Position numbers and translations under genes: made by a program
Part shown: positions 18,128 to 56,388 of the stretch, piece after piece
Numbering within the stretch: position 1 is the first letter of the stretch
How the letters are laid out: each line of letters opens with the position of its first letter
Source of the DNA: Marsupella aquatica
Taxonomy: Eukaryota; Plantae; Marchantiophyta
Direction of reading: 5' to 3'
Length of the DNA stretch: 64,000 nt
NCBI GenBank assembly: GCA_973895155.1
Contig: OZ316892.1
Span: 25,195,233-25,259,232 of the forward strand
The notes under the pieces: model-generated
Databases searched by the model: none
What the model was told of the DNA's origin: nothing
What the model saw: only the letters and a program-made list of their open reading frames with translations

Positions 18128-18391
18128 ACTGCCCAAGGGCAGAAAATCCCGAACCGGGACACATGATCTCAAAGGAAAAGCAACGGAAAAGCAACCCAAT
18201 GAAGGGTAGTAAACAAAAAACCTAACCGGGAGACATGATCCAAAGGCAAAGCAACACAATTTTTGGGAGGAAAAGACGAGAAAGGGCCCCAAGAAAAATT
18301 AGTTAGTGTACCCCTTCCAAAGGCAAAGCAACCCAATTTTGGGGAGAAAAAGACTAGAAAGGGCCCCAAGAAAAATTAGTTAGTGTACCCC
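18125..18391 (-). mobile_element. 5'-truncated 3' end of the CRE-like retrotransposon family, with an internal 77-bp duplication
   Basis: tgcccaagggcagaaaa...aaagcaacccaat...gggccccaagaa aligns with 34189 onward and abuts (AT)16. 18241-18314 is repeated at 18318-18391. Confidence 0.7.
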
Positions 18392-19957
18392 TGCTACACT
18401 TTTTAGGCCTTGTTTGAGTAAAATTAATATATGTAATATTAGCTTAAAGTCAAGTTGTGAGAGGCTATTATGGTCCAAAATGCTCTGGCATCACAGATTA
18501 TTATGATGAGATAGTTTGACCTCGGTAAAATGGCAACATGGATAAGTGAAAACCAGGCATAATACTTATACTCAGGGCCATCTTGCATGTAGAAAGTCCT
18601 GGAAAAATAGGCTGTTACCACTCCTACACTTTTAGTAAAAAGTGCATAGCAAATCTTCATAGAATGAACTAAGAAAAGACCTGTTTCATTTATTTGATTA
18701 GAAATTTAAAGGTTGGGATGTGAAAGGCCAGAAACTTTCCTGCCCTTGCCCCTGAATATGCTGCCATCAGGCTGCCTTAGGACGGGGTTGAGACATGAAT
18801 GTCTAGGTCACTCATAGAGTGTCATCAGTTTATTTAAGGCCCCAAATTTTCAGGACCCTCTACATGCAAGGCGGCCTTAAACCACAACTATGTCGATAAA
18901 AGACCTTTTGGTTCACTGTACAAAATTCTAAGGAAAAATGGGAAGAGGGTGGAAAATATATACACATTTTTAAATGGAAAAAACAAAGTCATATATCTAT
19001 CTCGTCCATGATAAGTATCATAAATGACCTGTGAAAATGGACGGGTGAGATTTCTAGATGCAAAATGAAATGGATGGCCAAGAAAGAAGGATTTCAATTT
19101 GATCTTGGCCATCCATTTTGTGGAATTCAAAATCCTGAAACAAAAATGGATGGTCAGGAGTTCGAATTCATCAATAAGATGGAAGAGAGTGCTTTTGCTT
19201 TCTTCTTACTAAATATTCCATTGTTTTGGATGCAACCTTTACCAGCAGTAGATCTCAGATCTTGGAGGCCGGGACCTTTCTATGGGGCCCTTGATCGCAT
19301 GGAATGGTGGAGAGAAGTTAAAGGGACGAGGAGTTAAAGGGACCAGTGAAAATCTGACTGATGTGGGGTGGTGCACTCACTGATGGTTGTGCATTCAAAG
19401 GGGGAAGAAAAATATAGAAATGAGGACTCCGGGTAACCAGAAGGTTTCTGGAGGCTCTTATAACCCAACACATGGCTTAAAGTGGCAGAAACCAGATGAG
19501 TCAACCGGCATTTTGATTCAAGATCAGGTTGAGTTACTGCTGTATATCTACATCAACTACCATAGTGCCATCTAGGTTTGTTCAGGACCTCTTCCAAATA
19601 AAAATTATTCATTACTCCACTAAATCATGCAACATCCAATCTTTCCCCTGTAAGAAAGGTTAAGGTCCTGTAAAGTGGCCCTAAGTTTGCTTAAATCAAA
19701 GTCTCAAATCTCCCTAAAGGCAAAAACCTAACTCACTCGGTGGGATGGCCTGTGAGTTATAAATTGTACTAAACCATTGCGCATCCACTCTACTCATGAC
19801 TTTATCCAGTAGCAAAAACACAAAGCTAAATTCAAGAAAGTGCTGAGCCACCTTGCATGTCGATCCTCTAAAAGTGACCTGATGTTCTAACCTGGCAACT
19901 GCTTATGCAAATTCAGGGTTCCTTGTCCTTAATTGAAAAGAAGGATAGGGAAATATA

Positions 19958-20218
19958 ACAGTGCCAAAGGGCAAAAATGCAGAACCAGAGAGACAGGGTC
20001 CCAATGGCAAAGCAGCCCAATAAAGGGGGCAAAAAGGAAGGAGAAAAGGCCCCAAGAAGACCAAATAGGCCAACAAGCCAAGGAGTCTCTCACAACAACA
20101 GAGGAACAAAGACAAAAAAACAAAAACCAAAAACCTACAAAGAAACAGAGAAGACTTAACCCAACTGGGTGGACAACTGGAAAGCCTGATAGAACTCCAG
20201 AGTAAACAGCATAGGATA
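19958..20218 (-). mobile_element. 5'-truncated 3' end of the CRE-like retrotransposon family
   Basis: gtgccaaagggc...cccaataaaggg...ggccccaagaaga...gaagact.aa...gaaagc.tg...aga.ctcc.gagtaaac..catagga is collinear with 34189-34461 and is preceded by atata. Confidence 0.8.
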
Positions 20219-20517: not shown

Positions 20518-20923
20518 CTAGCCTCACAGTTCTTTGAATGTAATTATAGGTAGTTGCCCTTTCACCAATCAGAGTGATTCCTCACAGGATGAATCAATTT
20601 CAGAGACTCACCCCATTTTTCATCCAGATCCCCAACTTCAATCATGGTCTAGAGGCTTCACGCCAGACCCAACTTCCAACTTCAGTTCCACCAAAGTCAC
20701 TCTCTAGAGGCTTTACTCCAGACCCAACTTCAGTTCCGCCAGAGTCACTCTCTAGAGGCTTCACTCTAGACATTAAGCCCATAATCCCCATTTTTCATAC
20801 ACACCCCCAACTTGAGTTCTGTCTCTCTGTGGAGGAGGCTTCACTCTAGAAGTAAAGCCCAGCCAGAGTCTATGTCTAGAGGCTTCATGCTAGAATACTA
20901 GCCGTGCAGACTTTACCAATAGA
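20518..20923 (-). mobile_element. Mini-Helitron-like element, copy 2, with amplified internal palindromes
   Basis: Minus strand reads A|TCTATTGGTAAAG ... attc-aaa-gaac-tgtgagg-CTAG|T, i.e. an A/T insertion site. At least five TCTAGAGGCTTCACTCTAGA-like units lie between 20648 and 20894. Confidence 0.65.
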
Positions 20924-30116: not shown

Positions 30117-30312
30117 CGAGCCTCATGTCAATGAAAAAACCATCATGATGTCATCATTTTAACATACATAATAATATATCAGTCTCCTTTCCATGGGAAT
30201 ACTTCTTTCTATGCACATAAAGTTTTGGTGGGGCCCTAGAGTCATAGTCTAGAGGCTTCACTCTAGAAGTCTAGACCCAAAACTCAGTTTCTTTGTGCGC
30301 TTTTACTTTAGA
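30117..30312 (-). mobile_element. Mini-Helitron-like element, copy 3
   Basis: Minus strand starts A|TCTAAAGTAAAAGCGCACAAAG. Perfect palindrome TCTAGAGGCTTCACTCTAGA near 30248. The left end acgagcctca matches actagcctca of copy 2 with one mismatch. Confidence 0.6.
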
Positions 30313-33552: not shown

Positions 33553-34188
33553 AAGGATATATAGACATCAACTCCAGAGCAGAACCCAAGGATCCGACAG
33601 GGACCCAGACCAAGAGGGAGAGAGGGTGGCACGAGGGCCCAAAAGCAAAACACACACACACACTACCCCCCACAACCCTTGCATGTGGAGTGATTGAACC
33701 TTAAACCTCTCACATCTAGGCTCATCCCTTGAGTTGCCAACTCAAAATTGTTTGTCCAAAGTTGCACATGACTCAAATTTTAGATAATTAAGTATTTCAG
33801 TTTTTAAGTACTTTGCCACTAATGATGTTCTAATTGACAATACTGCTACTGTTTTTTTTTGTATTAGTATAATTACTTTTTCATATTTATAAAAATAACA
33901 TTGGTTCATACATGGATCATAAGTTTACCAAGACAAAAGGGGAACTATATATGGAAAGGGTGACATTTTTATAAATACAAAAAACACTGACAATACTGTA
34001 AATTCAATCATCTTTAGTGACAATCTATTAAGTATTTATTGCCTCATCGTCATAGTGTATGACAGAGAACAAGAGGAGACGACAAACTCCACAATTGGCA
34101 AACAAAAGAATACTTGGGTAGAGAAGAGAAAGGAGTCAACCATAAGACAAAAGGATGAACTCTGTTAGTGCTGTATTAGTATATATAT

Positions 34189-37100
34189 CAAAGTGCCAAA
34201 AAGCACAAACACCAAACCGAGAGATAGGGTCTCAAACTAAGGCAAAGCTCGAGGCAAAGTAACCCAATAAAGGGCAAGAAACAGAAGAGGGGAGGGCCCC
34301 AAGAAGAACCAAGAGGCCAAACAAGGCAAGAAGTCCCCTCACACAACCAAAGATCCACAACAAAAACCAAGAACCCCCAATGGAGCAAGGAAGACTAAAA
34401 CCCTACTGAGCAGAGAACTGAAAAGCTTGGTTAGTAGAGCTCCGGAGTAAACCACATAGGAGGGTCACGAAGTGGAATCTGTCTAGAGGCCCTAAAACGT
34501 AGGGGGAAAAGGCCTCCGCTCAATACAATAAACCGCACATGCCCCGAGGAACTGGTCTAAGGTGGGGTGGAAAGCACCAAAAATCTCTAGAGCAAAAGGG
34601 TAGAAAAGATCTCCAGGATAGCGAACAACATATGCTTCCTCCTTAAGTTGGGCAGCCTTGGCAGCGCGTAGCCAGGCACATGAGCAGCCACTGCCACATG
34701 GCTCCCCCCAGTTGGATCAGCAATAGCCACATCACCAAGAGCAGGAACACCTGCCCTAGAGAAGACCAGATCAGCCCTCCTTCTGTTTGGAACACCATCA
34801 CGGGGGCCGGGGGAGCACATGCCGTTGCTCCATGGCCACATGGTACCCCAAGTCTCGGGTGATGGCCGCCATCACGTCCCAACTATCGTCATGTATAGCA
34901 GTCCGCTCGTTCTCACCTGAGGATTTGAACTCCAAAAGGATCCAGTGACGCGCCACACACACAGGTGGGTTTGCCAAGGAGGCAGGGGTGAGGAAGTCCC
35001 AAACAAAGGCGCAGAGATGTGGTAAAGAGAAAGGAGCTCAATCAAAATGGGGCCCACAAGGGACTAGCAGAAAGCCAAGCACCAGAGCCGGTGCTCGCAT
35101 AAGATAACAAGCAAGCCCGGACCGAGTCAGAAGGTGCGTTGAAGAGCATGCTAGAAAGGGTATGACGATGCATGCGGTTGGAAATCACCTGCTGGACACA
35201 ATCTGGGCTGTCCATGACTCACCACCTCCATGAAAACGGGGCAACGGCTTGCACAACCTCGGGAAAAAGTGTGCGGGCCTGGCAAAGGGAAACCTGGAAG
35301 GGAAGGACCCCATCCTCAACACCCATGACGTGATCAAAGAGGATGGGCTGAAGATGCATAATGAAGTGAGATGCGAGGGACATAGCCAACTGTGCCCAAC
35401 TACCCAAGAAAGCGCAAGGGGCAATGGAAACAACTAAGTAAAGAGATCCCCATGCCACCACCAGATGGAGGCAGGGTGGCCTGCCTAGCAGCAAAAGAAC
35501 CTTCCTCTCCGTCAAGGGCTCCCGGTCCAATAAGGTGTCCAAAGGTCCCCATCATAGTGGTGTCAAAAGATGAGAGCAAGGATAAAAATAAGGGAGTGGG
35601 CGGGACCGTCCAAAGAAGGTACAAAGGGCGCTGGACAAAGCACTGGACCAAAATCAAGAAGGCAATCTGAACGTCCCCAAGGGCCACCAACTGATCAATA
35701 TGAAGAACATCCTGGGTTGATGCAGCCTGAAAAAACCCACGAACAAAAGCCACCTCCCCAAATGGACCCCCAAGACCCGGATGCCCTCCGCACGGACAGG
35801 GATCCCCGGGGGAGGGGAGAAAGAATCAAGGAGTCAAAGCGAAGACTAGAACCAGCACTTCTGCGGTTGGACCAAAAGGCCAAGGAGAGCCAACTGGTCA
35901 ACAAAGTGGTAATAGGCATCCCCCAAATCTGAAGTAGGCCCCACAAGGTGAGTATCATCAGCGATGGACGGAAACATACAACCGGGAAAGGCGGCCAAGG
36001 AGGCTGAAAGTGCACAAAAGTGTGTCATGGCAAACAAAGCCCCACCAATAGGATCCCCTTGACGTGTACTAGTCTCAGATAGAATAGTCATGTAGGACCC
36101 TAGACTGAGGCGGTCGGGGTAGAACAATAAGGCTGGGGTCCCATAGAAGGCCCAAACAAACAGATGAGGGATACTCCACTTGCATCCCGCAACTCCTCAA
36201 ATATAGCACGCTTGGAGACAGTGTTGAATGCATTGGCCACGTCCACCTGAATGACCGCCCAATCTGGGTTGAGGTCCACAATAGAGCGGAGGCCATGCAC
36301 CACACTCTTAGAGCCCCCTGGGGTGGCCACCCCAAATGATGAGGAGAAAGATGAGATGCCAGCAGAGACCGGGTTTGAAGGCAAACACAACAACTGACCA
36401 TATGGCAAAGAACCTCCCCAATGGCAAGGGGCGGAACCCCATCCGACTCCTTGGCCATGGCCAACAACCGACTAGCCCCCAAAAGACAAGCCGCAAATCT
36501 GACCACCAATAACATGAGCACAAACCTGAAAAAACTATGAGGACCCAGACGCAGAGTCATCCAATAGGAAACAGTCCCGTAAGTGCTCAAACATCATCCT
36601 AGAGAGGCCCCTAGCTGAAAGGCATGGCAGATGAAGGAAAACTGAAGTGAAGACCTTCCGGGATAAGGAAAACTCAACTCCGGTACAAAACCCCCAACAA
36701 AGGTAGGGACCTCAACGGACGCTGGGGGATGAAGGGAGTGTAGAGCAACAATGGTCTCCTCGCAAGAAGGGGCAGGCGAGAGGGGAGCCAAAGAGTGCGC
36801 AGCCCACAAGAACTCACCAGCCTGTCCCAACATGAGGCACTGACAAAGACGATGCGGAACCAGAGGAACCTGGGGCACCATAGGGGAAGCCGCCAAATGG
36901 GATGCAATAGCCATCACCCAAAGATAAAACTCCTCCTGAAGTTGAACCAATCACCCGAGGAAGCGCTAAAGACAAGCGTGGGTCTCCCGGTGGCCAGCGG
37001 GGCCACCACGAGGGGGGAGAGCCAACACCCAATGAGGGAGCAAAAGTAACTGGGACTAGGCAACAGTGTTAGAGGGATCATGGCCAAGTGGTCCAAAGGA

Positions 37101-37580
37101 AGGCAAAAGGCATGCAAAATCGCAAACGGACAAGACAAAAACACCCAGAGAACCACACGGCTTACACCAAAACCAAACACCAACAAAGAGCACCAACCCA
37201 AACGCGCAGCAGCGAACAGCAGCCGGAACAAAAAAACCCCACTCCAGCCCAAGCAATGGTCAGCCAACCCGGGTGGCCAAGCTCCACAAAGGGCTGCCAC
37301 CAACACCACTGGCGGTCGGGGAGCCGAGTCCCAAAGGTCAGGAAGGCACCAGGCCGCAAGAGCAGACAAGCCCTCGGGCAGGGCAATCCCCCAACGGACA
37401 CAGATCCAACCCCGCCAACCGGGCCAACCCGGCCTTAGGCAAGGCAAGCCCCCACACACACCAACCACCAGTCATAGGATCCTGAGGAGCCAACAACCAT
37501 GCAAAACTGGCAAAAATGGAAGGCCGAGCCTGCACTCCCCCCAAGCAAAGAGAGTACGGGGAGGGCTGTCATGTACAACC
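34189..37580 (-). mobile_element. Decayed CRE-like non-LTR retrotransposon (RT + restriction-like endonuclease)
   Basis: Frameshifted fragments: GEF.WAAHSLAP...ETIVALHSLHP, PLAIGEV, QVDVANAFNTVS (~36230), RQGDPIGGALFA (~36050), IADD (~35960), QATLPPSGGGMGI, and a C-terminal Cys/His region with RRADLV...DVAIADP...FYPFALEIFG (RLE). The pyrimidine-rich 3' UTR abuts atatatat. The 5' boundary is approximate. Confidence 0.85.
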
Positions 37581-37585
37581 TCTCC

Positions 37586-37751
37586 ATGTATAGGATAATG
37601 GGGGTTTAGTCGCCCATTACCAGGGTGTAACGGGGCGACCAAATTCTGACCAAGCGAGACCGGTGGTTGCTGAGAGCGCTTTGGGAAGAAGCAGGGAGCA
37701 CCGGTGACACCCGGTAATGGGGGATCTTAATTAACCCTCATTACTCTACAT
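37586..37751. mobile_element. ~165-bp MITE-like foldback
   Basis: atgtataggataatgggggtt pairs with aaccctcattactctacat, and cccattaccagggtgtaac pairs with gtgacacccggtaatggg. Confidence 0.65.
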
Positions 37752-37795
37752 AATTCAGGGTTGGTAAATGGGTTACAGGGAATAAGAAGTCAACC

Positions 37796-40700
37796 AATGG
37801 GATAGGGAGTTGAATCTGCACTATCGAGGAGGTATACTAGAGCGCGGCGACTGCGGGCACCCCATTCAACTTTTTTGAGTTTGGTTTTGTAGAGACGACG
37901 TTCATTGCTCCTGCAAACTCGATGCATTTTCTTTGTTGGTGGTGCTTTGTGAGTTGATACTCTATATGCATTCTTGCTACTTTATGGTGTGTTGAAGGTG
38001 GTGGGATCAAGGTGCAGGCGATGGCACGACCAGCAGCTGATTGATCCAGGGTGGGGGCACAGACTACTCATTCAAAATTTTCTGAGTTTAAGTTTTTGTA
38101 ACCGTGCTGCTGTGTGTTCAATGCGCTCATTGTTGTGTTTTCAATGTTGAGTGGTCAACTTTGTATTGGAACTTACCGACTACTACTTGCAGTGGATTGA
38201 TTTCTTGCTGCAATTGGCGGGGTCTTTTTCAAGGTGGACAAGTTCAAATCAAGCTGGCACGAGAGTTGATCAATGGCTTTATTCTATCTTGCTTCCATTC
38301 TTATTTAAGACAACAACACTGCTTTATGCTCATTCAAACCAAATGGAATGACATTGTTGGACTTTTTTTGATCCTGTGACCTCCTATTCAGTCATAATTG
38401 CAGGGCTGCATTGCTTTATGGAAGTGAAGGGAATGAGTGCTTTATGGGAGGAAGCAAAGTGATTGAGGATGTAAAACATGGAAGGACTGAGTCTAGACAA
38501 AGAGACTAGTGAGATGTTTCCTTGGACGAGCTTGAGGAGCCAGGGAACATTGAGTTTCTTTCTGATATACCTTCGCTTGTGGTCTAGGCAGGGCCGGATG
38601 GTGAAGAGAGCTCGAACGGGAGTTCCATTGCGCTTAGCGATCTTGGCTTGCAATCGGTTCCAGATCCCTTACTATCTGATGCTGGGAGAGGGGACGAGAA
38701 GCACCCGTCAGATCAGAACAACAAATGGGCATTGAAATGTGGTCACTGCTGCGTGCTGCTTTGAAGTGGGACATGTCGATTGCAATGGGAGACTTACCAT
38801 TAGAGAAACTTGATGTGCTCTTTAGTAATCATTTTTGCAGAGTTGTGAAGGTCAATGGTAGCACATATCCTAGTTCAACATTGATGAACATGATGAACAG
38901 TTTCAACCGTATCATTAAACGGTCAAGCAAACTCTCAGATCTGTCAGGGGACAAGGTAATCTGGTTGAGAAAGGATCTAATATCAACTCGCATCCCCTTT
39001 TTGCAAAGACACAGATGGTCCTGTGAGCTGCAGTGAAGAAATCGGCTCAAGATAGAGTGATTAAGAAAAGAAAAAAGGCATGATTGTTTTTTACCTTTCT
39101 TCTCCATCTTTGTTTGAGCTTCGAGTTGCTTGATTCTTTCTCTAGTTTCATAATCAAGATCTGTTATACAACATCTCATGTGTTTTCTGTGGTTCGCAAG
39201 CTGAGATAATCACGGAAAAATGGAGACAGCAGTTCTGGCAAACATCGACCATCAGATAACCAGTAGCCATGGATGCTACAAGCTTGGCATTCTATTTCTT
39301 GGTTTGGCTTGGGACTCGAGGTGGTGTAGATGTACAATCTGATGAGGAATGACATTCAGATATGTACAGACAAATCAGGATGAGAATATGTACCGTTAGG
39401 TGATTGAAGCTCTTTAGGATGCTATTAATATTGTAGTTTCTTGATTTGAGTTAGACATCTAACAAGATTTAAGTTGTTTTTTACAGTTTTGAAGAAAGAG
39501 AGAGCAAGAACAATTCGTACTCCCTTGATCGCTACAATGAAGAGTAATTCCGGAAATTGTTTTACAATTATGAGGATGATTTTGTCCTTTGTGTGAAGCA
39601 ATATTTGGGACATTTGCCTCCTCTGGAAGGTGACACGAAACCTGATCTTTTCATGGGGCCTACTACTAATCTTGTGGGCAATGTGTGGTACAACCGAAAG
39701 CATAAGGTTGCTCAAGATCATGCTGGAAAGTTGTTGAACAATATGCTGAGTCTGGTTGGATTACATGTGATCTGTTTTCTAATTAACCGTAGTGGAAGAT
39801 CCACTTTAGTCACTCGGATGGGCGCTAGAGGAGTATCAGATGAAGTGGGGATGATGATCAGTGGTCACCACACCAATAGTGGATACTCAAGGTATGATCA
39901 TACATAGGAGTTAAAAATGAATGCTGTTGTTCTTATTTCTGCTAACCCGAATGTGGATTATGAGAACACCTTAATGGAAGTGTCCAAGAAATTCGTGGAG
40001 GAGAAGGTTGTTGGAAACTTGGGTCAGTTGAAACCTCTGATTGATAATATCAACACAAAACCGAGCCTGCAATTGTCACTGATCCATCCAAGACATGAGG
40101 TAAGTTGGTGCTTCTTATGTTTTGCTGTTCGGGTTGTGTTTGGTGTTTTGTGTCTTGATGTCTTGATGTTCAAAACTGTTAAGTAATATACTTGTTGGTG
40201 ACAGGAATCGAGTGCTGGGAAAGCAAGTGAAGAACTTGCATCAAAAAAGATGAAAGACAAGTAGGTTTGTAGTGTCAAATTTTCAGTGAAATCTAGTTGA
40301 GTGTAATGTGTTTGTGATACTGATTACCTATTGCTTTCCTCACTGGTTTTACAGGAATAAGATCAGTCAAATGAACGAGTTCGCTCAATGGACCAAGAGA
40401 AAAGTTGCTTCAGTGGCCCAAGAAGTTTGATGAGGTAGACTGGATAGGAGAGATAACAAAGAACGACCCTGAGTTTGCAGCTCAAACATTTGGTGGAGGC
40501 CCCTCTAGTTCTAGTGTTTTTGTTGGTTATAGTGGGTCTGGCAATAGATTCAAAAATTGTACTATCACCTTGGTTGTGAAGGATGATAAGGAAAATAAAG
40601 CCCCAAAGGAGATCTCATGTAGTCTTCAATTACTTGTTACAGATTACAGAGTGTAGAACAGACCAGATTGATTGAGGGATTCACTATGCAATGATCCCTT

Positions 40701-40918
40701 CCATTTGAATAAAGTGTTCACTTTGATTCAGAGATTACAAAACTATGTAATGGCTGCCGTGGCTGGATTTTTCCGAATAAAGTTTCAAAAGATTAGTGAA
40801 CTGCTGTATACACTGGATTGAAATGTGAAATCACCAAGTCCCATTATTATTGTCTTTTAAGTTTCAAATGACTACGAAACCTCAACTCAGATGGTGATAA
40901 CGGCAGATTCAAATGGGA
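37796..40918 (+). mobile_element. Crypton-like tyrosine-recombinase DNA transposon (candidate boundaries)
   Basis: Encloses the YR pseudogene. Direct repeat AATGGGA at 37796-37802 and 40912-40918; inverted TTGAATCTGC (37810-37819) / GCAGATTCAA (40903-40912). Confidence 0.55.
38478..40656 (+). pseudogene. Crypton/DUF3504-type tyrosine recombinase, intron-containing, disrupted by stops and frameshifts
   Basis: Reconstructed: NNKWALK..LDVLFSNHFCRVVKVNGSTYPSSTL..FNRII..NINSHPLF..AAVKKS, then FYFLVWLGTRGG (R, 39317), ERESKN (K, 39506), LFMGP..NVWY, NRSGRST (H-x-x-R with H>R, 39788-39799), ISGH (39866), YSRYD (Y, 39893) and a C-terminal FKNCTI. Introns at about 39078-39200, 39395-39486, 40100-40204 and 40261-40354. 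Confidence 0.88.
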
Positions 40919-40969
40919 CTCTCGATCAAGGTTGACAGCATATTTGAAATGGATGGATGGTTGTAAACA

Positions 40970-41179
40970 CTAGCCCGATTATCCGTTCCTTGAACATAAA
41001 CAAATATGAAGAACAAAATCTCGCACAATAATATTTCTATGCTATTTCGTTAACCCTCATTTTAAGTGTTTTTTGATTGAGATTCATCACTTTTATCTCT
41101 ATTGGGGTTCCGGTCTAGAGGCTTCACTCTAGACCCTAGGCCCTTAAGAGTAGACTTTGTTTGCGCTTTTATAGTAAGA
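40970..41179 (-). mobile_element. Mini-Helitron-like element, copy 4 (best preserved, ~210 bp)
   Basis: Minus strand reads A|TCTTACTATAAAAGCGC ... atgttc-aag-gaacgg-ataatcggg-CTAG|T. This gives a 5' TC, a 3' hairpin 9 nt before CTAG, an A/T target and no TSD. Palindrome GGTCTAGAG-GCTTCA-CTCTAGACC at 41112-41135. Confidence 0.72.
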
Positions 41180-41315
41180 TTGGAGCCATTTTCTCAAGGA
41201 ATATGCTAATTTCGTAACCTAATTATGAGATTCGTAAGGCAATTATGAAATTCTATAACCCGATGATGAACTTCCGTACGGGGGCATTATGAAACTCCGC
41301 CGTGTCAGGCTGGAA

Positions 41316-42030
41316 ATTACGTATAGGGTAATGACGGCTTGGTCTTGGGTTACTAGTCTGTATCCCTGTGACCAGAAAGTGAGGAAATGTTGACCGACGG
41401 CAGCTGGGAAGTTTTTCTGAGCTTTGTGGGAACAGGTTTCAGACAGTAACCCCAGGCCAAGCCGTCATTATCATACGTAATACCTGCCCAGAAAAAAGAT
41501 TACCGGGAACACTTTCTCCGCATAGGGTTATGGAAATGGTGGCACCTAGTAGAAAAGGTTACACACCGATAACCTTGCTTCCTGATGAATTACGGGAAAT
41601 AGACACCTATGACAGAAAACTTCACAAGACGATAACCCATATACCAACCCTCTGTTGCGTATAGGGTAATGATGGCTTGGTCTTGGGTTACTAGTATGTA
41701 ACCCTGTGACCAGAAAGTGAGTAAATACTGACACTAGGAAGCCCGGAAGGTTTTTTGAGTTTTGTTTTCAGCTTTGTGGAAACAGGTTTGAGACAATAAC
41801 CCCAACCCAAGCCACCATTATCATACTTAATACCTGTCCGGAAAAAAGATGATGGGAACATTTTTTGGGCAGAGTATTATGGAAATGGTGGGTGGCACCT
41901 AGGAGAAAAGGTGGAAAAAAGATGATGGGGAACATTTTTTGGGCAGAGTATTATGGAAATGGTGGGTGGCACCTAGTAGAAAAGGTTAAGGTTACACAGG
42001 GATAACCTTGCTTCGTGACACGAATTACGA
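41316..42030. repeat. Tandem duplication (~340 bp) in which each unit holds a ~165-nt inverted-repeat hairpin
   Basis: attacgtatagggtaatgacggcttggtcttgggttact (41316) pairs with agtaaccccaggccaagccgtcattatcatacgtaat (to 41481). The second copy is at ~41658-41831. An extra ~73-bp duplication lies at ~41840-41987. Confidence 0.85.
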
Positions 42031-42310
42031 AGGGCCGAAGGAGGGCTAGCCGAGGGCGACGACTTCCCCTGCAGGAGGGAGGGAGGGCCTCAATCATAGT
42101 GAATCCACCTCCTTCGAAACCCCGAGGCCCACGCAGCCTCCGCTCGCCTCCGTAGCAGTAGTTCAATCTACTGTGTATTAGTCGTGTGGATTTGTGACGC
42201 GAGAATCAAGTTCCTAGGTCAAAAACTTGTTCGCGTGCACTGATGTGCCGACGCGAAAGGAGTTAAAGTTGCTGCCTGTTAGCTACAGAGGGGTTTTGTG
42301 GATCGACACT

Positions 42311-54807: not shown

Positions 54808-56388
54808 ATGGCCATGGCGGCGGGGTCCTCTGCTTTGATGCGGGCTCACTGTGCCCCTCCTGCAGCGGCTCGTGGTGTTGCTGAGAGAGAGCTTGCTGCA
54901 AGCAGGATGATGAGCAGCTGCTCTAGGGGTTTAGGGTCCTCGGCCTCTGCACTCCGTGGGGCGAAGCTGATGTGCAACACCAATCATGGCACCAACAGCA
55001 ACAGGGCAGGGAAGATGAATTTGGTGGTACCAAGAGCGGTCTCCGATTCTCCACCTTCAGAGTCATGCCTTGATCCAGACGCAGGAAGGAGTGTCCTGGG
55101 CATCATCCTTGGAGGAGGCGCTGGCACCCGGCTGTATCCTCTCACGAAGAAGAGGGCCAAGCCAGCGGTCCCACTGGGTGCTAATTACCGTCTCATCGAC
55201 ATTCCCGTGAGCAATTGCATCAACAGCAACGTCAACAAGATTTATGTACTCACGCAATTCAATTCTGCGTCCCTCAATCGCCATCTCTCCCGAGCTTATG
55301 CCAGCAACATGGGTGGTTACAAGAATGAAGGTTTTGTGGAGGTCTTGGCTGCCCAGCAGAGCCCTGAGAACCCTAACTGGTTCCAGGGCACAGCCGATGC
55401 CGTGAGGCAGTACTTGTGGCTCTTCGAGGAGCAGCAGGTGCTGGAGTATCTTATTCTGGCAGGAGACCATCTCTACCGTATGGATTACCAGGATTTCATC
55501 AGGAAGCACAGGGAAACTAATGCTGACATCACTGTTGCTGCCCTTCCCATGGATGAAGCTCGTGCCACTGCATTTGGCTTGATGAAAATCAATGACAGGG
55601 GCCGGATTATTGAGTTCTCCGAGAAACCTGAGGGGGATGAACTGAAGGCCATGATGGTGGACACCACAGTGCTTGGTCTTGACAAGGAGAGGGCCAAGGA
55701 GCTGCCATACATTGCTAGCATGGGTATCTATGTCGTCAGCAAGGAGGCCATGATTAAACTACTGCGTGAGGACTTCCCCGAGGCGAATGACTTTGGCAGC
55801 GAGGTCATTCCTGGCGCCACCAAACTCGGAATGAATGTGCAAGCATACCTGTATGATGGGTACTGGGAAGACATTGGGACCATTGAGGCCTTCTACAATG
55901 CCAATTTGGGCATCACCAAGAAGCCCGTCCCAGACTTCAGTTTTTACGACAGGACTTCTCCAATCTACACTCAGGCACGATTCTTGCCTCCATCTAGGAT
56001 GCTGGATGCGGATGTAACCGATAGCGTCATCGGTGAGGGTTGTGTGATTAAGAACTGCAAGATCTTCCACTCGGTTGTGGGGCTGCGGTCATGGATTGCT
56101 GAAGGAGCTGTTATTGAAGATGCTCTGCTGATGGGTGCTGACTACTACGAGACAGACGAGCAGAGGAGCGAGTTGTTGGACACTGGTGGCATCCCCATGG
56201 GCATTGGCCGGAACTCCATCATCAAACGTGCGATTGTCGACAAAAATGCTCGGATTGGGGAGAATGTGAGGATTGTGAACAAGGATGATGTGAAAGAGGC
56301 TGCCAGGGAAACTGATGGGTACTTCATCAAGAGTGGGATCGTGACCATCATTAAAGATGCTGTTATCCCGAACGGCACTGTGATTTGA
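54808..56388 (+). CDS. APS1: ADP-glucose pyrophosphorylase small (catalytic) subunit, plastid precursor, 526 aa, intronless CDS
   Basis: Transit peptide to PRAVSD, then SCLDPDA (redox Cys), [58 protein letters not shown] and [19 protein letters not shown]. First ATG at 54808. Confidence 0.98.

Follow-up and report, generated by a model that had tools for sequence, protein, structure and literature searches.

A decayed tyrosine recombinase gene in the liverwort Marsupella aquatica and its probable origin from a multi-copy Crypton-like DNA transposon

The investigated stretch of 64,000 nucleotides from the liverwort Marsupella aquatica (assembly GCA_973895155.1, contig OZ316892.1, positions 25,195,233 to 25,259,232; hereafter the window) harbors a tyrosine recombinase (YR) pseudogene at 38478..40656 (+), which comprises five exons and is disrupted by four stop codons and at least five frameshifts. 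The gene is embedded in a putative element spanning 37590..41660 (+), whose left limit is given by the boundary of a paralog and whose right limit by the inverted partner of its left arm, and which would measure about 3.6 kb once two nested insertions are subtracted. The original prediction had confined the feature to 38478-40656; this span covers the gene, with 38478 as a putative start codon upstream of the first aligned position at 38594, but the element extends about 0.9 kb further left and about 1 kb further right.

The reading frame was reconstructed by a frameshift- and intron-aware alignment of 38594-40610 with P0001, a protein of 711 amino acids from Calypogeia fissa (CAM6090480.1) with an unbroken reading frame, in which 275 of the 513 aligned residues are identical. 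With the largest exon as query and its two stops masked by X, P0001 was the sole match among the proteins of 358-2000 residues in a search of 5.8 billion proteins (E 6e-70, 59% identity). The stops are located at 39024, 39381, 39545 and 39905, and five frameshifts are required by the alignment. The corresponding residues of P0001 are R, R, Q and Q, so that all four stops are consistent with C-to-T changes; paralogous contigs carry a C at the stop positions 39545 and 39905.

Four gaps in this alignment have the appearance of introns, namely intron 1 at 39078..39199 (+; degenerate, with a GC donor and the acceptor AA, 47% T, P0001 continuous across it), intron 2 at 39395..39486 (+; GT...AG, phase 2), intron 3 at 40100..40204 (+; GT...AG) and intron 4 at 40261..40354 (+; GT...AG). 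The alignment program returned intron 1, intron 2 and a single gap in which introns 3 and 4 were merged; for introns 1, 3 and 4, the precise borders were set by eye from splice motifs. The T content amounts to 42-47% in the gaps versus 16-29% in the exons. T-rich gaps, splice motifs and continuity with P0001 suggest that all four introns were spliced, and the earlier rebuilding of a four-intron recombinase gene across these gaps is upheld by the alignment. The gene calls of five relatives (P0002, P0004, P0007, P0008 and P0009) enter hydrophobic, intron-like tails near the column of intron 3. Other K-type relatives, so named for a lysine in the active site described below, occur as long single open reading frames (ORFs) of 464-819 amino acids on JGI/Logan contigs of 2-11 kb (P0020, P0021, P0026, P0165), and intronless subfamilies apparently exist, to judge from these calls; a cluster mate of P0026 is present on 12 contigs. 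Two gene models represent fusions of clade members with pentatricopeptide (PPR) repeats (P0029) and with a reverse transcriptase (RT) domain (P0060), which are probably prediction artefacts over nested insertions.

The catalytic codons were located at 39317..39895 (+) by alignment with P0001 and its relatives: R-I at 39317, K at 39506, an arginine at the His-II position (39788), R-II at 39797, H-III at 39866 and Y at 39893. The register at His-II agrees with that of NHSLR-type relatives, and also with integrase 3nkh, in an albeit weak comparison (E 0.16) that aligned NKsgR to SHILR. The N-terminal FCRVVKVNGSTYP pattern and the C-terminal F.NCTI motif reported beforehand were both recovered in the six-frame translation, the latter as FKNCTI.

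The identity of the protein is supported by the predicted fold of P0001. In the ESM Atlas, residues 205-570 of P0001 lie near DUF3504 and phage-integrase clusters (score 0.98), with a template modelling (TM) score of 0.81 to a DUF3504 cluster of mostly molluscan proteins; a second search, among unnamed clusters, named no plant cluster. An AlphaFold2 model of P0001 built from 86 sequences has a block-mean predicted local distance difference test (pLDDT) value of 73-98, mostly above 90, for residues 211-580, and is disordered elsewhere. Residues 587-711 are mostly below a pLDDT of 50 and lack a Pfam match, hence no folded C-terminal domain follows the recombinase. The closest solved fold is Cre (Foldseek E 5e-08; Z 19.2, root-mean-square deviation 4.2, 300 aligned residues), followed by Xer and integron recombinases, with QRICH1 at Z 11.8 and type IB topoisomerases (TopIB) at Z 12.6 or less. 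As modelled, the protein belongs to the tyrosine recombinases in the vicinity of DUF3504. The profile support anticipated by the original prediction materialized only in part: Pfam misses the window copy and P0001, but structure and a family profile do link them to tyrosine recombinases and DUF3504. Searches of the window pieces, P0001 and the family alignment against Pfam, NCBIfam and PDB sequences yielded nothing significant. The GCR1_C domain of CryptonF proteins was not detected by Pfam in P0001 or in 22 clade members, and DUF3435, the domain of Starship captains, was matched neither in 46 relatives nor in P0001. A Starship identity was dismissed, given the lack of DUF3435 and an inferred element of about 4 kb with one gene and without large cargo. 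Scans of metagenomic and viral contigs returned 52 and 22 pattern matches, respectively, none of which was confirmed as a relative.

A profile based on 11 close relatives retrieved 730 proteins at E <=0.001, the weaker matches being classic DUF3504 proteins; the best 150 of these 730 were considered further. Alignment to the catalytic domain comprised 166 rows, a few of them near-duplicates, including 116 with an aligned Arg-II. The His-II position of these 116 rows is occupied by K in 73, H in 26, R in 12 (window copy included), T in three, and C and Q in one each. The window copy and P0001 harbor the R, R and Y of the R-H-R-Y tetrad, but exhibit an arginine at His-II and thus lack the full tetrad. 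Eleven K-type and two R-type proteins from liverworts and a fern retain R-I, K, R-II, H-III and Y together. Judged by this alignment, lysine or arginine at His-II is a family-wide trait rather than decay of the window copy. Our comparison is accordingly in line with the originally described R, K, H-III and Y, but not with the view that the histidine of the HxxR box is a mutation of this copy. The substitution is the most surprising feature of the protein.

For the phylogenetic analysis, 67 of the 166 rows covered at least 150 of the 226 columns, and removal of the poorly aligned P0134 and P0150 left 65. In the unrooted tree, all 35 K/R rows and two others are located on one side of a split that is supported by a value of 99.4 in the Shimodaira-Hasegawa-like approximate likelihood ratio test (SH-aLRT). 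Nine rows have a named source, from a look-up that did not extend to the His-type rows, and all nine belong to this side, namely C. fissa (3), Marchantia polymorpha and M. paleacea (3), Riccia sorocarpa, Ceratodon purpureus and Adiantum capillus-veneris. The K/R clade hence separates from His-type DUF3504 proteins with strong support, in a tree that is seeded by a plant profile and contains no named CryptonA, CryptonF, CryptonI or CryptonS references. Owing to the plant-seeded search and the missing root, the tree supports a distinct clade, but not its origin. A relative rich in alanine and proline with a threonine at His-II (P0146) forms a long branch inside the plant clade and could be a green-algal member.

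The taxonomic context bears on the question of whether the gene was contributed by contaminating fungal or animal DNA or by a recent horizontal transfer. One example of such a source would be the Glomhoppers of Glomeromycota, intron-rich CryptonA elements with DUF3504 whose fungal hosts inhabit the thalli of bryophytes (PMC13465315). The window carries plant genes, among them a gene with an E value of 1e-259 to plant enzymes (see below), the contigs with the nearest named relatives of the recombinase measure several megabases and come from five plant genera, and the histidine is reported to be retained in Glomhoppers (PMC13465315), although no named Glomhopper is included in our tree. We therefore assign a negligible probability to contamination or a recent transfer; an ancient transfer may have taken place.

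The abundance of the gene was investigated in sequencing runs, four of which (from two studies) contain 70-94% of the sampled window words. Diverged copies are present among the contigs of all four locus-bearing runs and, with the inclusion of run X5, in five of the five runs examined. One paralogous contig differs at 55 positions over 38222-38894 in runs X1 and X2 and recurs in a shorter form in X4; others exhibit 40 differences with a skip of 500 bp, or 67-89 differences over the catalytic exon (X1, X2, X5). Three to four contigs of X2 carry variant letters at 38695 and 38831. In C. fissa, relatives are located on four contigs of 27.2, 12.2, 5.8 and 66.6 Mb, and two of them are 92% identical. 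The recombinase gene belongs to a multi-copy transposon family and is not a single host gene; a single-copy gene is unlikely in view of the diverged copies in the runs and the relatives on four contigs, which agrees with the multi-copy status expected for a transposon. The contig depth in X2 is about 171-177 for one subfamily versus 22-36 for the others, a hint rather than a copy number. Run X5, which has the species label of X2, comprises almost no sampled words and none of its 45 contigs reaches 99% identity, while two paralogous contigs are shared with X2. A presence/absence polymorphism was not counted from X5, because its depth is low and flanking genes were not compared.

These copies also speak to the idea that the K/R clade is a catalytically dead, domesticated family of DNA-binding proteins like ZMYM and QRICH1, with the locus as the pseudogenized duplicate of a host gene. 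One example of possible domestication is found in Marchantia, where Mp5g04240 (labeled as a DUF3504 protein in UniRef) and KAG6545836.1 of M. paleacea (P0057/P0162/P0163) form one 90% cluster in which H-III is replaced and the region after box II is degenerate; judged by these sequences, they represent a candidate domesticated gene. The presence of introns and the inactivation of Cre by lysine or arginine at His-II would fit the same idea. Yet the eleven K-type and two R-type proteins mentioned above retain all other catalytic residues. The domesticated animal genes ZMYM2-4, QRICH1 and KCTD1 are intact and lost the catalytic Tyr and Arg-II (PMC3212892), whereas the window copy is broken and keeps both. 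Moreover, the family comprises many diverged copies, which are often broken, and the window copy is flanked by transposon-like ends, which makes domestication of the family a highly unlikely explanation.

The left end of the element is marked by one paralogous contig that matches 37590-37853 and then differs over more than 130-250 bases leftward (X1, X3, X4). This boundary abuts the 4-bp core ATGT (37586..37589, +), presumably the target half of a terminal direct repeat, in the same register as at the starts of two short repeats described below. The adjacent 5' hairpin region (37590..37747, +) was delimited by self-alignment, folding and homology to the short repeats and consists of the arms A (37590-37634) and A' (37701-37747). 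The first 200 bases from 37590 are collinear with the high-copy short repeat at 41321 (score 52 versus 23.6 +/- 3.1 for shuffles, maximum 37 in 300), and the three occurrences of the motif YGTATAGGRTAATG in the window coincide with the start of the element and those of both short units (chance 0.03). The hairpin region is followed by an arm B (37752-37778), whose inverted partner B' at 41630-41656 led us to place the right end at 41660; the putative 3' end (41596..41660, +) comprises B' and the core GCGT (41657-41660). Arm B and its own inverted end agree at 21 of 27 positions, versus 13 for the end of the second short unit and nine for an alternative right end at 41322, which was dropped for this reason. 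A 12-bp direct repeat at 37731/41050 was likewise discarded as terminus, since its second copy is located inside a Helitron-like insert. On the right side, a paralog stops at 40967, at the start of this 210-bp piece, in a comparison that reached 41105. The presumed 3' part of the element also contains, at 41202-41300, three to four tandem units of 20 bp with TTCGTAA/ATTATGA motifs, which are possible accessory binding sites.

The segment 37735..37778 (+), recognized by its match scores, comprises the end of A', the core ACAT (37748-37751) and arm B, and resembles an inverted copy of the predicted circle junction, comparable to an internal complementary region (ICR). It matches at 30 of 44 positions without gaps and thereby represents the best plus-strand site in the window, the next best scoring 24. 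In three of three elements, the predicted end junction is found again as its reverse complement at about 145 bases from the 5' end, each time with an identical gap of 2 nt. With the inferred right ends assumed, gapped scores of this junction copy are 49 for the element, 41 for the first and 35 for the second short unit, versus control maxima of 26, 35 and 30, respectively, from 2084 tiles each. When the two element ends, which had been chosen after the arm match, were joined in silico, the single strand folded at z -7.1 (40 shuffles), with both termini beside the internal core. The region 37000-42300 has no match in Rfam. In a scan for the terminal motif, ten metagenome loci were treated as chance hits; four showed a 22-bp match only, and none had a tblastn match.

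The cores at the ends are ATGT at the left flank of the element and ACGT before the first short unit and in the loose-end consensus of the repeat 3' end; the loose-end consensus before 41321 ends with AT and would yield ATGT (agreement 0.37). These cores would fit AYGT as target, with ACGT as terminus.

The two short repeats lack a gene. Unit 1 (41323..41595, +) is inserted at an ACGT in the 3' part of the element and was recognized by the loose ends of contigs (31 at 41321 in X4; 28-46 at 41585, with a consensus ending GAATTACGT) and by an end design like that of the element. Its single strand folds at z -4.0 (40 shuffles), and it is presumed to be a non-autonomous derivative of a sister family. 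Unit 2 (41661..42030, +), identified by its similarity to unit 1 (80% identity over 259 bp), contains a 74-bp tandem duplication and is arranged in tandem at the right core of the element. Both units harbor the sequence AAGGTTA-N8-TAACCTT (41555-41576 and 41988-42009), with perfect 7-bp arms and an asymmetric 8-bp spacer that differs between them, 20-25 bases from their 3' ends; in sequence it looks like a recombinase site. It was not counted as evidence, because the only two matches are those in the short repeats and six of 100 shuffles reach two. A further insertion (40970..41179, -), located between the nucleotides A and T, is a 210-bp non-autonomous Helitron-like piece with the minus-strand ends TC...CTAG, in keeping with the end rule of Helitrons, and was delimited by 20-26 loose contig ends per run at 40969 (X1, X2, X4) and 41-58 at 41180. 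Helitrons are described to target AT or TT (PMC10288648). A very abundant motif with the palindrome TCTAGAG-N6-CTCTAGA is found at 41112-41180 within this insert and again at 20648-20780, 20848-20895 and 30238-30290.

Such a repeat cluster raises the possibility that the gene is a Crypton-derived passenger or relic, flanked or captured by a separate hairpin-ended element of the rolling-circle or MITE (miniature inverted-repeat transposable element) type that supplied the structured ends. The Helitron-like piece nested in the same cluster is compatible with this scenario, as are the short repeats, which greatly exceed the gene-bearing part in abundance and reach about 100 times the depth of the flanks (depth being a hint and not a copy number). 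However, the only good partner of the left arm B is located 3.9 kb away, across the gene, and the paralog begins at the identical base and tiles the interior at about 90% identity. Furthermore, no HUH or transposase domain was found inside, in the ORFs and in one frame each of two flanking segments. A separate origin of the ends is thus unlikely.

To the left of the element, a decayed, multi-copy non-LTR (long terminal repeat) retrotransposon is located at 34500..37589 (-), recognized by the translated RT motifs DVANAFN, QGDP and IADD, with CCHC and restriction-like endonuclease motifs downstream of the RT; we take it to be a CRE-type LINE (long interspersed nuclear element). No profile match was obtained for this RT. 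Its motifs lie on the minus strand 2-3 kb left of the recombinase gene, which contradicts the original statement that no RT is adjacent. The RT region is outside the element boundary and has no counterpart in the paralog, hence it is not part of the recombinase element; between 37590 and 41660, neither an ORF nor a motif of RT or RNase H was found. Both flanks of the cluster contain 10-11% T versus 26-35% beside them, a weak hint that the cluster sits in the 5' part of the LINE.

The alternative that the gene is the recombinase of a DIRS or Ngaro retrotransposon, whose RT is either that at 35-36.5 kb or deleted, could draw on this adjacency and on the internal inverted junction copy, which has the topology of the DIRS ICR (PMC8969392). 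The RT is oriented in the opposite direction, is missing from the paralog and is accompanied by endonuclease motifs of the non-LTR type. Introns argue against passage through RNA, and the nearest relatives are of the DUF3504 type and not of the ALOG/DIRS type. Only one of 46 scanned relatives has an RT domain (P0060), which reads as an LTR-type RT joined by gene prediction, and relatives are thus not always linked to an RT. With the neighbouring RT outside its boundary, the element is no DIRS or Ngaro in our analysis, as had been proposed, and we regard the retrotransposon origin as extremely improbable.

Further high-copy short repeats with clusters of loose ends at 33590, 33802, 34434 and 34498 occupy 33590-34500, and related copies occur at about 18181-18392 and 20002-20073. 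The window also carries plant-type genes for the ADP-glucose pyrophosphorylase (AGPase) small subunit, the source of the E value of 1e-259 given above, SRP19, a DUF2062 protein and a 2-hydroxyacid dehydrogenase. The AGPase small subunit is plastid-type and encoded by one uninterrupted ORF of 526 amino acids (54808-56388); its homologues in flowering plants have introns.

The most likely explanation, which we hold with considerable confidence, is that the locus represents a decayed copy of a multi-copy, intron-bearing Crypton (DUF3504-related) DNA transposon of land plants, whose Cre-fold recombinase likely excised a circle that was likely re-inserted at AYGT. This substantiates the original proposal of a dead copy of a Crypton/DUF3504-type YR transposon in a land plant with unbroken relatives, as exemplified by P0001. 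The spliced recombinase would bind the terminal arms that flank the 4-bp core (predicted sites), recombination between the left and right cores would release a circle, and the circle would integrate at AYGT. The short repeats may be non-autonomous passengers inserted at the element's own ACGT and GCGT sites. Since integration would regenerate an AYGT-type site, later short derivatives could be stacked at the end of the element. In this scenario, a LINE-like element would have come first, the recombinase element would have entered its 5' part, and the Helitron-like piece would have followed together with both short repeats.

Several observations weigh against this explanation. Neither P0001 nor any of six pieces of the window is matched by Pfam, whose cut-off for DUF3504 (PF12012) is passed by 21 of the 22 His-type rows scanned versus only two of 22 K/R-clade proteins. 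Lysine and arginine are among five inactive substitutions of His289 in Cre (PMC2943603), so that activity of the K/R clade is not a given. The right end is inferred and not marked by a paralog or an empty site, its core GCGT and the cores ACGG and ACGA of the two units each deviate by one base from ACGT, and no single contig covers the whole element, the continuity of the full-length paralog being pieced together. Finally, CryptonA and CryptonI elements of animals are described without terminal repeats (PMC3212892), whereas the ends are structured here.

In K-type relatives the lysine precedes Arg-II by three residues, an arrangement shared with poxvirus TopIB, in which the lysine at the His-II position faces away from the scissile phosphate (PMC2943603). 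By analogy, the K/R side chain may likewise be turned from the phosphate, so that the enzyme could have been active; the closest solved fold is Cre and the structural match to TopIB is weaker.

A bolder reading, which we consider rather doubtful, is that seed-free land plants possess their own YR transposons with a TopIB-like active site whose movement is a single-strand transfer with the internal junction copy as splint. Cleavage of one strand would occur at the two AYGT cores, and both ends would be paired with the internal inverted copy of the junction to form a circle, like the DIRS ICR but without reverse transcription. Single-strand transfer would fit both odd features of the family, the altered active site and the ICR-like ends. 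If true, it would imply copy-and-paste amplification and account for the abundance of short derivatives and their tandem stacking at element ends.

Among the known systems, the Crypton-type element is most similar to the CryptonA/DUF3504 elements of animals, with which it shares a single YR gene without RT, non-autonomous derivatives and the lack of a folded C-terminal domain (PMC3212892), and which come closest to it in language-model features, in predicted structure and in the profile search. It differs by the K/R at His-II, its own clade (SH-aLRT 99.4) and proteins that mostly remain below the DUF3504 cut-off. Non-autonomous Cryptons outnumber autonomous ones, and plant hosts are absent from the table of the same study (PMC3212892). 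Glomhoppers, a fungal CryptonA subfamily, resemble the element by a DUF3504-related YR, frequent introns, mostly truncated copies and nested repeat clusters, but they reportedly keep the histidine and have no common intron positions and poorly conserved ends (PMC13465315), whereas we found K/R, one intron position apparently common to close relatives and defined ends. CryptonF-1_cRei of Chlamydomonas has the ends CACCG, the target CAYCG and clean excision (PMC9977147), compared with ACGT/AYGT as predicted here; CryptonF proteins carry the GCR1_C domain, and the activity of CryptonF-1 was observed, whereas our element is known from its sequence. DIRS1-type elements share an internal segment complementary to both termini (PMC8969392); the element differs by the absence of RT and RNase H inside, its introns, the lack of long inverted terminal repeats and a DUF3504-type YR.

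The novelty of the element within the Crypton-like lineage is the clade-wide change of the active site together with ICR-like ends. Our literature search, with subscription papers, Repbase, Dfam and genome supplements outside its scope, found no Cryptons, DUF3504 elements or ends of this kind described for land plants. Pfam scans miss most members of the K/R clade, hence they are probably unclassified in the repeat annotations of bryophytes and ferns. Candidate ends, a target core and non-autonomous partners are usually missing from studies of Cryptons, as are unbroken proteins, which C. fissa provides here; with such a locus the gain of Crypton copies despite clean excision becomes directly testable. 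The Marchantia gene Mp5g04240 is a candidate for a plant counterpart of the domesticated ZMYM and QRICH1 genes, and a natural recombinase clade with lysine or arginine at His-II would show a recombinase working with a topoisomerase-like active site.

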